64,000 nucleotides of DNA, from the sequence record LR597660; one strand, given 5' to 3'. Below the pieces are notes generated by a model. That model was not told the DNA's origin, made no database searches, and worked only from the letters and a program-made list of their open reading frames with translations. Position 1 is the stretch's first letter. Every line of letters begins with the position of its first letter. The DNA comes from Escherichia phage T4_ev151. A program made the position numbers and the translations under genes. Shown here one piece after another: positions 19,869 to 35,121 of the stretch.

Positions 19869-20231
19869 TTAAAAGAATTTAAATTTTTTCTTTGACCTTT
19901 TATTAAATGCATCTTGTAGTTGCATTGTAATACATTTTTCTACATGAGGAGCTAACTCAGCTTTTCTTTCTTGGTCAAGAACAGCAAAGTCCATTACGAC
20001 TTTTCCATCAACCCAATCTAATTTTGTCACATACACAATGTGTGTAGAACCGTCTTCTAGTTTAATGACAATCTCCTGGATAACATTTTCCATGGCAGAT
20101 TTAATTATCTTAAGAGATTCATTAAAAAGACGTTCTTTTCTTTCTTCTTCCCCCTCCGAAGAGGGGGATTCATCGATAATTTCTAGATCTAAGTCTAAAT
20201 CATCTTTATTCATTAAATTCTTCCATATCAC
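19869..20231 (-). CDS. 40: head vertex assembly protein gp40-like
   Basis: 120-aa ORF between 41 and uvsX. Confidence 0.55.
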   Translation of the reverse strand: MIWKNLMNKDDLDLDLEIIDESPSSEGEEERKERLFNESLKIIKSAMENVIQEIVIKLEDGSTHIVYVTKLDWVDGKVVMDFAVLDQERKAELAPHVEKCITMQLQDAFNKRSKKKFKFF

Positions 20232-21387
20232 TTAACTGATCTAGGTCAGTTTCTAAATCAGCTGCTGATTTACTTTTACTTTCTGGAGATTTAAATTTTT
20301 CAACCTTTGAGTTAATCAATTCATCAACTTCAGCTTCAACAATTTCATTACTATCAATAGCACCTAACTGATAAGCACGTTTAATAGCATCTCGGAATGG
20401 TTGATGCTTAAATAAAGGACCCCAGAATGTAGTGCAATTGGTATCTTTTGCACGCCAAGATTTTTCTTCGCGAATCATCTCGCCGGTTTCTTCATCAAGA
20501 AATTCACGAGCATACCAGCCATTTTTAGGTTTTACCACAAATCCTAATTCAAGAGCCATATCTAACAATCCAGAATAAGGATCGATGCCACCGTCAAATT
20601 TAACATCAATAAAGAATTTACTTTTTTCTTTAACGGTACGAGATTTTTCTACATTTAGAACAAATTGATACCCCTGAAGATCAGAACCATCTTTAATCTG
20701 GCGCTTACCGATAATGAATACAGTATCAGCCGAATACATTACGCCTGTACCACCTGTCATCACGGTTTTACTAAACATTTCAATTGTTTCAATTGTATGG
20801 TTAACCGCAACACATGGAATGTTTTTAATACTAAAATAAGGAGTAACAATACGGAATAATGACTTCAGTGATTTAGCACGAGTCATATCTGCCACAGATT
20901 TTTCATTCAAGGCATCTTCCGTTTCTTTCTTAGAAGCCATATTACCAATTGAGTCGATGAATACTATAACCTTTTCACCACGCTCAATAGCTTCAAGCTG
21001 ATTCACCATATCAATTTTCAGCTGTTCAACTGATTGAATTGGCGTATGAATTACACGTTCCGGGTCAACTCCCATGGATCGCAAATAAGCTGGAGTAATA
21101 CCAAATTCGCTATCATAGAATAGACAAACCGCGTCAGGATATTTGTTCAAATATGCCGCAACCATAGTCAAAGACATATTTGATTTAAAGTGTTTAGAAG
21201 GCCCTGCGAAAATAGTTAAACCAGACTGCATACCGCCATCAATCGCACCAGAAATAGCAATATTAAGCATTGGAATTTTTGTACGAATTACATCCTTTTC
21301 ATTAAAGAATTTAGATGTAGTCAGTTCAGCAGTCATTTTAGAAGTGGAAGCTTTAATCAAACGGGATTTTAAATCTGCAATAGACAT
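20206..21387 (-). CDS. uvsX: UvsX recombinase (RecA-like)
   Basis: 393 aa; Walker A GPSKHFKS; acidic C-terminal tail. Confidence 0.9.
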   Translation of the reverse strand: MSIADLKSRLIKASTSKMTAELTTSKFFNEKDVIRTKIPMLNIAISGAIDGGMQSGLTIFAGPSKHFKSNMSLTMVAAYLNKYPDAVCLFYDSEFGITPAYLRSMGVDPERVIHTPIQSVEQLKIDMVNQLEAIERGEKVIVFIDSIGNMASKKETEDALNEKSVADMTRAKSLKSLFRIVTPYFSIKNIPCVAVNHTIETIEMFSKTVMTGGTGVMYSADTVFIIGKRQIKDGSDLQGYQFVLNVEKSRTVKEKSKFFIDVKFDGGIDPYSGLLDMALELGFVVKPKNGWYAREFLDEETGEMIREEKSWRAKDTNCTTFWGPLFKHQPFRDAIKRAYQLGAIDSNEIVEAEVDELINSKVEKFKSPESKSKSAADLETDLDQLSDMEEFNE

Positions 21388-21464
21388 TCATTTTTTCCAT
21401 AGGCATCATTATATTTTCCTCACTGGTTAAAGATAGAGTAATTATAACACAATAAATTTAGGCA

Positions 21465-22313
21465 TTAATCAACTGCTATTGGATGAATAGCATTAAACTT
21501 ATGAAATGCTTCTGATTTTTCTTTACGCGAAACGCACATGCGAAGAACCTTTAATGGCTCGTCTTCTTCACCCAACGATTTTCGTTTTTCAATATTAGAA
21601 GTTTTCCAACGAGCTTGCTCTGGAAACTCTCTATTGATTTGCTCAAGCGCTCTATTATGTTTAGAATTACTACGAATTGAACTACACCCGCCAGGAGCTT
21701 GTGCTTTTCCAGATACAACTAGATATTTGAACAAGGCCAAATGCGGATAACCTTGATTAATTAAATTGAGAAATGCATACATATCTTCGCATAAATCAAT
21801 TTTTCCATACCCAATTTGTTCTGTCGTAAGTTTTCCGAGGTCATACCATGTATTCGTGAATCCATATGAATTTTCACGATAATTACCCCAAGATGAAGTA
21901 ATTTTAAAAATTGGTAGACGAGCATGGCCATGATAATATCCGCAATCCATGGCATCCTCAACATATTGAATCAATTCATAGAACTGTTCACGAGTTAATT
22001 GATTAATTTTATCTACGCGCCGTTTATCGTCTCTCTTTCGTATTGAACTCATACGGATAGTAGTATCATCGTCAATCATCCAGATTCGTTGACCTGCATA
22101 CATATCAGTAATTGCTTTACGAGTACCGGCAATTCCGTTTACATCATCAGGAATAGTTATAATTTTAGCTCTAGACCCATAGGCATCATAATAAGCTTTT
22201 TCTTCGTGTTCACGCACTACAATATGGGGTTCATAATCAGTCGGAAACATATCAAGGGCAGAAACTGCCCCTACACGTTGATAGCTTGGAATTACGAATT
22301 GAATCATTTCCAC
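21465..22313 (-). CDS. DxD-motif glycosyltransferase at the beta-gt locus
   Basis: 282 aa; WMIDDDTT DxD motif; sits between uvsX and 42; does not resemble T4 beta-gt N-terminus. Confidence 0.5.
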   Translation of the reverse strand: MEMIQFVIPSYQRVGAVSALDMFPTDYEPHIVVREHEEKAYYDAYGSRAKIITIPDDVNGIAGTRKAITDMYAGQRIWMIDDDTTIRMSSIRKRDDKRRVDKINQLTREQFYELIQYVEDAMDCGYYHGHARLPIFKITSSWGNYRENSYGFTNTWYDLGKLTTEQIGYGKIDLCEDMYAFLNLINQGYPHLALFKYLVVSGKAQAPGGCSSIRSNSKHNRALEQINREFPEQARWKTSNIEKRKSLGEEDEPLKVLRMCVSRKEKSEAFHKFNAIHPIAVD

Positions 22314-23044
22314 TCACCGTTATAATCTTTTTTCACAATATGAGTTTCACCAGTGTTCCACCAATGGTCAACTAAATAAAACTGATTTTCGTACACATGA
22401 AGACTTCCAACGTTCCATATAATAGAACCTGCTTTATATTGCCGCGATGGGTCGCCTGCATTCAAATCAGATACTAATTTATCTAGTACGTATTTTTGCC
22501 ATGCATAATCATTACGATAGCCTGCCCAGCAGTCATTGCTTCTCATATTAACAACTGCATTGACTTTCTTATCACGAATCAGGTACTGTACTGTATTAGT
22601 ACACATGAAATCTGACATACCATCTTTATTGTAGTCAAATTGCATGGATGGACGAGTATAAATCATGATACCACGTCGAGAATCAGGATTTTGACCAAGT
22701 TCAGCTAAACACATATCATACTGGGCATAGTTATCTTCTGACCAGATAGCCCAACCATAATTCGAGTTAATTTCACCTTTAGAAGATGCTACCTGCTGCC
22801 AAATCTTCGGTGTTTCACCTGGAATATCTTTAACAAACAGACTTTGAGACTTATACCATTCAAGTTCACGCTGAATGTATTCATCATTAAGAGCGCCAAA
22901 AATAAACGGTTCATCTGCTACAAATGATGCGCCAATAATTTCAATAGTTTTAACACCAGTTTTATCAATTACGAAATCTTTTTCCTTTAATGCAATTCCC
23001 AAATGAAGACGGATTTCTTCAACTGTCATAGAGTCACTAATCAT
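22304..23044 (-). CDS. 42: dCMP hydroxymethylase
   Basis: 246 aa; thymidylate-synthase-like fold. Confidence 0.9.
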   Translation of the reverse strand: MISDSMTVEEIRLHLGIALKEKDFVIDKTGVKTIEIIGASFVADEPFIFGALNDEYIQRELEWYKSQSLFVKDIPGETPKIWQQVASSKGEINSNYGWAIWSEDNYAQYDMCLAELGQNPDSRRGIMIYTRPSMQFDYNKDGMSDFMCTNTVQYLIRDKKVNAVVNMRSNDCWAGYRNDYAWQKYVLDKLVSDLNAGDPSRQYKAGSIIWNVGSLHVYENQFYLVDHWWNTGETHIVKKDYNGEWK

Positions 23045-23197
23045 TTAAACCTCAATTGATACATTCATATTTAACTTGTAACAGTAATAAACCCCAACCT
23101 AAAATAATAGTTGGAATCATAAGAGGAACCGTTACACTATAGTATATACTTATTATAATCATCAAGATTAAAAGCAACACTGTTATAATTTTGCTTT

Positions 23198-23449
23198 TCA
23201 TTCCTTCTCTCTGATGATAATTACCTGATTTGGTTGTGCAGACTTTTTAGTTTCACCCGCAATTGACCAAATAAATGTAATAAACCAACCAATAATTGAC
23301 CAGTTAAACAGTAAAGATGTGAAAAAGATTCCTACTGTCGATTTTGACCCACGCATCAAAGCAATAAACCATGGAAGCATGTATATAATAATAGCCAACA
23401 CACCTGAAACTAAAACCATAAAAATTGAACCTGCTACTAAAGTTTCCAT
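23198..23449 (-). CDS. imm: superinfection immunity membrane protein Imm
   Basis: 83 aa, two TM helices. Confidence 0.65.
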   Translation of the reverse strand: METLVAGSIFMVLVSGVLAIIIYMLPWFIALMRGSKSTVGIFFTSLLFNWSIIGWFITFIWSIAGETKKSAQPNQVIIIREKE

Positions 23450-23847: not shown

Positions 23848-24096
23848 TCAAATGCAAGTAGTAATTACTCCAGTAGTGCTTATGCAGGTATTACCCATTT
23901 GCACACCTAAAGATCCATTTGTATTCACATGAAGATTATCATCAATTTTAACTGATATTTTACCATTAGTGTGAATAACAGTGCTAGATTCAATCACAGG
24001 TTGAGTATCATTTTCAACACTAACAAATGGAACTGCTGTTAATGCAACTAAACAAACTGCTAAGCATCCCATAACAATTTTCATTTTATTCTCCAA
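23848..24096 (-). CDS. small secreted protein
   Basis: 82 aa with signal peptide. Confidence 0.4.
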   Translation of the reverse strand: MENKMKIVMGCLAVCLVALTAVPFVSVENDTQPVIESSTVIHTNGKISVKIDDNLHVNTNGSLGVQMGNTCISTTGVITTCI

Positions 24097-33903: not shown

Positions 33904-33920
33904 AAGGGCCGAAGCCCTTT
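33904..33920 (-). terminator. GC hairpin (UUCG loop) at agt stop codon
   Basis: aaagggccgaagcccttt. Confidence 0.45.
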
Positions 33921-35121
33921 ATTTTGTAATAATGTCAAACTGTTCTTTAAAGCAGAAGCTTGAATCTTGATGCTGATACAAAAATTCATATGCTTTTTCT
34001 CGCTCACGGTCATAAAGAGCTCGGTCAGATGACAGTTCTTTAATACGTTCAAATGTTGATTCCATATCATTTTCATCAAACCAAATGATACCGCTATCAT
34101 GCGAGGTCAAAGGAGTATTATCAACACGGAATTTTAAATTTTCGCCAGTAGATTTCCAAAATACCGGAATTGTTCCACATGCACCAAGCTCGAGATGAGT
34201 ATATTCTAAAGAGCGCTGTAGATATTTTTTATCCAACTTACTCAGCTGATAACCAAATCCGGATTTACTCATGCGTTCAAGCATTTCGCTATTTACATAA
34301 CGGTCAAGAATTTGCGTTGGCAAATTAGGAGCAATTTTAATTTGGTCTACTTGATGAAGACGATAATACTCATATGGAATTCCTTTTTCTTTAATAGGAA
34401 TGAACGCTGGAGAACGTTCCAGACCTTCCATAATAGTACTTAGTCCTGCAGGTTTAAGATGTTTTTCGTGAAAATCAAACATCTGATAAAAACCTTTCCA
34501 TGTAGTCGTACGACCAATCCAACGGTTGATATTCATGTTAATTTCAGAAACATCTTTCCAGTAGGTTGATCGAACCTTCGCAATATCCATAGGAGGCTGA
34601 AAGTTATATACGGTCGGTGCTTCTTCAATATCATCAAACAGAGAAACAGTTTCCGGATACCATTCTTTCATCAGAACTTTATTAAAATCACCATTATCAG
34701 AATGGCTAAAAATAACATCAGCTCGACGAACAGTTTCTTCTAATCCCAAATTTCGACGCAAAGAAAGAGAAGAATGGTCATGTTGATAAACTACAACACG
34801 AACCGAAGGTTTAATGTTATCAATAATTTTTTTATAGTTATTAATAGTGTCTTCTTCAACCGAAGTAGCAGGAACTGAATTGATAATTAGAATATCACAA
34901 TCATTTACCAGCTTAAGTGTTTTATCATATTCTTTTGCCAATAAAACCGGAATTGAAAATGATTTATAATCATGCGCGCAATTACGAGTAAATGATTTAT
35001 CTTTAGCATAAACCAAAGTTACTTCATGACCATTCTTAATAAACCAATCACGTTGCTCAAGAGAAAATTTAGTTACACCACAACCTTCAAGACCTCGAGC
35101 CATAAAAATACATACTTTCAT
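33919..35121 (-). CDS. agt: DNA alpha-glucosyltransferase
   Basis: 400 aa; N-term MKVCIFMARGLEGCGVTKFSLEQRDWFIKNGHEV. Confidence 0.85.
   Translation of the reverse strand: MKVCIFMARGLEGCGVTKFSLEQRDWFIKNGHEVTLVYAKDKSFTRNCAHDYKSFSIPVLLAKEYDKTLKLVNDCDILIINSVPATSVEEDTINNYKKIIDNIKPSVRVVVYQHDHSSLSLRRNLGLEETVRRADVIFSHSDNGDFNKVLMKEWYPETVSLFDDIEEAPTVYNFQPPMDIAKVRSTYWKDVSEINMNINRWIGRTTTWKGFYQMFDFHEKHLKPAGLSTIMEGLERSPAFIPIKEKGIPYEYYRLHQVDQIKIAPNLPTQILDRYVNSEMLERMSKSGFGYQLSKLDKKYLQRSLEYTHLELGACGTIPVFWKSTGENLKFRVDNTPLTSHDSGIIWFDENDMESTFERIKELSSDRALYDREREKAYEFLYQHQDSSFCFKEQFDIITK

Follow-up and report, generated by a model that had tools for sequence, protein, structure and literature searches.

A T2/T6-type second-glucose transferase gene (ba-gt) in the β-glucosyltransferase locus of Escherichia phage T4_ev151

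In phages T2 and T6, gp42 leads to 5-hydroxymethylcytosine (hmC), α-glucosyltransferase (α-gt) adds an α-linked glucose, and the ba-gt product adds a second, β-1,6-linked glucose to give gentiobiosyl-hmC, the form taken by 72% of hmC in T6 and by ∼5% in T2 (PMC6024577; PMC11078745). T6 lacking ba-gt retains α-glucosyl-hmC as the sole form (PMC11078745) and is more sensitive to the glycosylase Brig1 (PMC11078745), and its DNA becomes a substrate of the deglucosylase BapA. [quoted passage not shown] Two of these isolates are the Durham phages BGP, with hmC, α-glucosyl, and gentiobiosyl forms at ∼1:2:2 (∼40% gentiobiosyl), and QOTSP, with ∼two-thirds gentiobiosyl (PMC13390438). The T6 TAGT adopts a GT-A fold and groups as the sister of GT2, in contrast to the GT-B enzymes α-GT and β-GT; TAGT homologues are found in many contexts, some with a β-GT and some alone (PMC13216743, 2026).

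The window analyzed here is a 64-kb stretch of phage T4_ev151 DNA. Identity, family, fold class, motifs, synteny, and partner genes were determined from it, and the chemistry and genetics of T2 and T6 are taken from the literature. A gene assigned as ba-gt lies in the gene 42-uvsX interval, replacing the T4 b-gt gene, and both partners that would make its substrate, gp42 and α-gt, are encoded in the window:

20206..21387, minus strand: uvsX recombinase, downstream neighbor (PHROG 97, E = 1e-109)
21465..22307, minus strand: ba-gt (ggt), assigned as β-glucosyl-HMC-α-glucosyltransferase (TAGT family, predicted GT-A fold), 280 aa plus stop
22065..22073, minus strand: DDD (DxD) motif, residues 79 to 81, within WMIDDDTT, presumed metal/UDP-sugar diphosphate binding site
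22275..22292, minus strand: IPSYQR motif, residues 6 to 11 (invariant I-P-S-Y-x-R), putative first strand/loop of the nucleotide-binding domain (predicted strand, residues 2 to 6)
22304..23044, minus strand: gene 42, dCMP hydroxymethylase (makes the hmC precursor), upstream neighbor, 93% identical to T4 gp42 over 245 aa (PHROG 160)
22313..22318, minus strand: Shine-Dalgarno-like GGTGAG, 5 nt upstream of the ATG, read from the sequence
33919..35121, minus strand: agt, α-glucosyltransferase (PHROG 2888, E = 6.8e-223, residues 1 to 400)

The order uvsX, ba-gt, gene 42 is the same in YUEEL01, T2, and T6, and the agt gene, whose presence the first-pass annotation had reported correctly, has counterparts annotated as α-glucosyltransferase in the closest genomes. 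That annotation also placed the T4 β-gt gene rightly between uvsX and gene 42 but left segA unmentioned: the T4 interval holds segA and b-gt, whereas ba-gt is the single gene in the interval of the window. The spacer between ba-gt and uvsX is only 77 nt (21388-21464), at the place of the GIY-YIG homing endonuclease gene segA in T4, and, unlike in T4, no segA homing endonuclease gene adjoins uvsX in the window. This spacer contains TATAAT preceded by AATGCCTAAA, a combination that we take to resemble a MotA-box middle promoter for uvsX. Two small minus-strand ORFs lie farther upstream: one of 49 aa between gene 42 and imm (23052-23201; PHROG 3610, E = 5e-26) and one of 82 aa between imm.1 and gene 43 (23848-24096; PHROG 4189, E = 2.5e-29). 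The T4 reference record has no annotated gene in either interval, and homologues of the small ORFs are annotated in T2, BGP, and QOTSP.

The reading frame is uninterrupted on the minus strand over 21465..22313, with 282 codons counted from a GTG. The 282-aa protein described previously is thus real as an ORF, but its start requires correction, as the most likely initiation codon is the ATG at 22307, two codons inside the GTG frame, which would yield a product of 280 aa (the version used for residue numbering throughout). This ATG overlaps the stop codon of gene 42 as ATGA and is also the start annotated in T2 and in the RefSeq record of YUEEL01. The overlap suggests that ba-gt may be translationally coupled to gene 42. 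A promoter/terminator scan around ba-gt gave counts not above those of shuffled sequences, and a search of the full 64 kb against Rfam at gathering thresholds gave no match. Within ba-gt codons 10 to 21, a 15-bp RNA hairpin (∼22279-22246, minus strand; −17.4 kcal/mol, z = −3.2 versus shuffles) with the core GGGGCAG-UUU-CUGCCC was flagged as terminator-like; its 3′ arm holds the AUG of Met20, and its sequence is identical in T2 and T6.

Several lines of evidence identify the gene product. It aligns along its whole length with PHROG 842 (“beta-glucosyl-HMC-alpha-glucosyltransferase”; E = 5e-89) and scores 40.7 bits (gathering cutoff, 27.5) with Pfam family PF20691 (TAGT, TET-associated glycosyltransferase), with residues 5 to 209 aligned to positions 2 to 205 of the 205-position profile. 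Over 280 columns it shares 98% identity with the protein of T2 (AP018813 and MH751506, two independent records with identical sequences) and 97% with that of T6 (AP018814 and MH550421), and it is 99% and 98% identical to the proteins of BGP and QOTSP, respectively. The gene is almost certainly ba-gt of the T2/T6 type (ggt, TAGT), whose product adds a second glucose by a β-1,6 linkage to α-glucosyl-hmC, forming gentiobiosyl-hmC. A second-glucose transferase as in T2/T6 had been offered in the first-pass annotation as one example of what a different DxD-type glycosyltransferase in this slot might be, and the full-length alignment to the T2 and T6 enzymes bears that example out.

The DxD motif that had drawn attention to WMIDDDTT is present (22073-22065), but such a motif is expected 1.3 times by chance in a protein of this composition, against the one found, and what gives it weight is solely its invariance in homologues as distant as 32% identity and its place at the end of a β-strand in the predicted GT-A fold. 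A word-indexed protein search returned 11 cluster representatives only, down to 28% identity, and an alignment of nine full-length members has 40 invariant columns, including I6-P7-S8-Y9-x-R11, D79-D80-D81, D175, G206-G207-x-S209-x-x-R212, E250, and R256; the three aspartates are invariant in nine homologues. A search of solved structures by sequence found none related (best E = 1.6, to an irrelevant protein), and the fold class was therefore taken from an AlphaFold2 model. Built on a shallow alignment, this model has moderate confidence (mean pLDDT 71, pTM 0.72) and is weak at residues 130 to 150 and 192 to 211 (pLDDT below 50). It predicts a GT-A/GT2-like fold with a single Rossmann-like nucleotide-sugar-binding domain, in agreement with the published statement on the T6 TAGT (PMC13216743), and places DDD at the C-terminal end of the predicted strand 74 to 79. 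By analogy with other GT-A enzymes, DDD presumably binds the metal and the UDP diphosphate, and IPSYxR probably has a role in the nucleotide-binding domain.

By the T2/T6 route, cytosine in the phage DNA would be replaced by hmC through gp42, and after replication α-gt would place an α-linked glucose on most hmC residues. The ba-gt enzyme, with its predicted GT-A fold and DxD motif, would use UDP-glucose as the donor and, in a presumably metal-dependent reaction, extend the α-glucose by a β-1,6-linked glucose, the product of this step being gentiobiosyl-hmC. As the β linkage would be formed from UDP-α-glucose, the mechanism would be inverting. The window copy, intact and fully conserved, is probably active and performs the same reaction as in T2 and T6. 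Virion DNA would then contain hmC without glucose (roughly one-fourth in T2/T6), α-glucosyl-hmC, and gentiobiosyl-hmC. β-Glucosyl-hmC would be missing from this mixture because a T4-type β-gt was not found in the 64-kb window (tblastn with T4 b-gt, best E = 0.49) and its normal slot is occupied. The proposal that the hmC sugar pattern differs from that of T4 agrees with the literature on this gene type (PMC11078745; PMC13390438; PMC13216743).

Public copies of ba-gt differ among themselves. In T6 MH550421 (L003 4923-4980, minus strand), codon 10 is a TAG stop, which explains why “ggt” is annotated there from Met20 (261 aa). T6 AP018814 (L005 2135-2974, minus strand) has lost one Asp of DDD in frame (WMI-DDTT; 279 aa). 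The figure of 72% gentiobiosyl-hmC refers to T6, and both public records of this reference phage carry lesions in ba-gt; the two lesions differ from each other, and the window (compared over 22307-22065) and T2 copies are intact at these sites. The T6-record lesions may be laboratory-stock mutations or sequencing errors. The T2 gene (L004:4283-5125 and L009:3286-4128, two identical independent records) encodes His11, while codon 11 of the window (22277-22275) encodes Arg. Arginine occupies this position (IPSYxR) without exception in the window, T6, BGP, QOTSP, and nine homologues with identities as low as 32%, which makes His11 a candidate cause of the low (∼5%) second glucosylation of T2.

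The window protein has I89, K95, R97, and I101, where T2 and T6 have M, R, C, and V. These four residues are shared with BGP, whereas QOTSP has the T2/T6 residues; BGP further differs from the window by I50V, A202S, and Q203H. At other positions the window is T2-like (Y40, D55, and R106) or T6-like (R11 and P251). The substitutions relative to BGP and QOTSP thus form a mixed pattern that gives no reliable call of a T2-like or a T6-like level of gentiobiosylation.

Alternative readings of the locus concern the identity of the reaction and the activity of the enzyme. The slot is that of T4 b-gt, and the protein might accordingly be a highly diverged T4-type β-gt that places a single β-glucose directly on hmC. 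The lack of resemblance reported earlier for the T4 β-gt N-terminus is confirmed, however, by BLASTP against T4 β-gt (best E = 4.1, with no good full-length alignment), and the protein is also smaller (280 versus 351 aa), is predicted to have a GT-A/GT2-like fold rather than the GT-B fold of T4 β-gt (PMC13216743), and nearly matches the disaccharide-forming enzyme of T2/T6; the chance that it is a β-gt of this kind is negligible. Transfer of another sugar, e.g., arabinose as in RB69-like Mosigvirus, or transfer to another acceptor would produce a sugar pattern not seen in T2/T6. The varied contexts of TAGT homologues, with β-GT or alone (PMC13216743), indicate that specificity varies among family members and lend this reading some support, but at 97 to 98% identity to T2/T6 the enzyme is unlikely to have switched donor or acceptor. 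Comparison with RB69-like arabinosyltransferases, which had been proposed as a check, revealed no similarity to RB69 ORF003c, a candidate arabinosyltransferase with a predicted GT-B fold (BLASTP best E = 1.2). In addition, the RB69 locus has sugar-nucleotide biosynthesis genes, none of which lies between gene 42 and uvsX here, and phages with 98 to 99% identical proteins have been shown chemically to carry gentiobiosyl-hmC (PMC13390438). A different sugar or acceptor is consequently very improbable.

A second-glucose transferase of the T2/T6 type could nevertheless be present but inactive or weak, leaving DNA with essentially α-glucosyl-hmC and hmC, at a T2-like or lower level of the disaccharide. 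Lesions are evidently tolerated in public records (the T6 MH550421 stop, the T6 AP018814 Asp loss, and T2 H11), and gentiobiosyl-hmC is only ∼5% in T2 DNA (PMC6024577). The window gene, in contrast, is full length and has lost none of the 40 family-invariant residues, R11 and DDD among them, which makes an inactive copy unlikely; YUEEL01 encodes exactly the same protein (100% identity), and dozens of isolates match the gene at ≥98% DNA identity, which suggests purifying selection. We consider loss or near-loss of activity improbable, if less so than a change of reaction. For an active T2/T6-type enzyme, the extent of the second glucosylation is uncertain, as I89/K95/R97/I101 are common to the window and BGP (∼40% gentiobiosyl). 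There is a small chance, greater than that of an inactive copy, that this extent is set by the I89/K95/R97/I101 variant and/or by the conserved hairpin at 22279-22246, which would bury the codon-20 AUG a short way past the putatively gene 42-coupled start. If so, the DNA would carry an intermediate, tunable mixture of hmC, α-glucosyl-hmC, and gentiobiosyl-hmC rather than a T6-like one, still a quantitative variant of a known system.

The gene is widespread among related phages. By megablast, ba-gt is present at ≥90% DNA identity in 474 phage records, comprising Escherichia, Shigella, Yersinia, Salmonella, and other Tequatrovirus isolates, with YUEEL01 the best match (99.9%). A tblastn search with the window protein found 689 records, including ∼200 from Klebsiella and Enterobacter phages at 62 to 66% identity, and T4-type β-gt was found in 126 records only, 29 of these at ≥90%. 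Positions 12000-36000 of the window are ∼97% identical to many Tequatrovirus genomes, in which α-glucosyltransferase, uvsX, and other genes are annotated in the same order. As hundreds of sequenced relatives carry ba-gt at the same spot, its occurrence here is ordinary: ba-gt in this slot is the common Tequatrovirus arrangement, and T4 is the exception. Homologues of β-gt with ∼50 to 55% identity occur in several Enterobacter, Klebsiella, Proteus, and Aeromonas phages and in Escherichia phage vB_EcoM-PM123, with a second “glucosyl transferase” annotated under or beside the match, i.e., a combination of β-GT and TAGT. The product of this combination (a disaccharide on β-glucosyl-hmC?) appears to be less well characterized.

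Annotation of ba-gt predicts the sugar pattern of the DNA (hmC, α-glucosyl-hmC, and gentiobiosyl-hmC, with no β-glucosyl-hmC), and this pattern in turn predicts the likely behavior of the phage towards modification-dependent defenses. Gentiobiosyl-hmC is resistant to Brig1 and BapA in vitro, as published for T2, T6, and many relatives, while DNA containing it is still cut by GmrSD-family enzymes such as BrxU, and Brig3 targets the unglucosylated hmC fraction. The altered sensitivity to such defenses anticipated from the first reading of the locus is already established in the literature (PMC11078745; PMC13390438; PMC13216743). For this phage, the ba-gt finding adds annotation and not discovery, the consequences for defense having been published for T2, T6, and many relatives.

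Cellular GT2-family enzymes with a GT-A fold (e.g., BcsA catalytic domain, PglI-like β-1,3-glucosyltransferase, and TarP/TarS) are only 7 to 14% identical to the window protein and act on a glycan or lipid, whereas the acceptor of ba-gt is a DNA-borne glucose. T4 b-gt occupies the same slot, and both enzymes are described as UDP-glucose-dependent, β-linkage-forming DNA glucosyltransferases, but they are unrelated in sequence, and T4 b-gt acts on hmC, whereas ba-gt acts on α-glucosyl-hmC. With T2 and T6, the window shares a ba-gt of 280 aa in the gene 42-uvsX slot, the ATGA overlap with gene 42, the α-gt and gp42 partners, and DDD. The best-matching record is YUEEL01 (NC_054935), whose gp176 is identical in protein and 99.9% identical in DNA, with an identical neighborhood and no notable difference at the locus. 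Since its synteny, family, fold, and chemistry, as well as its effects on defense, have all been published, ba-gt in this phage is a known gene, a correct annotation of a known system rather than a new enzyme.
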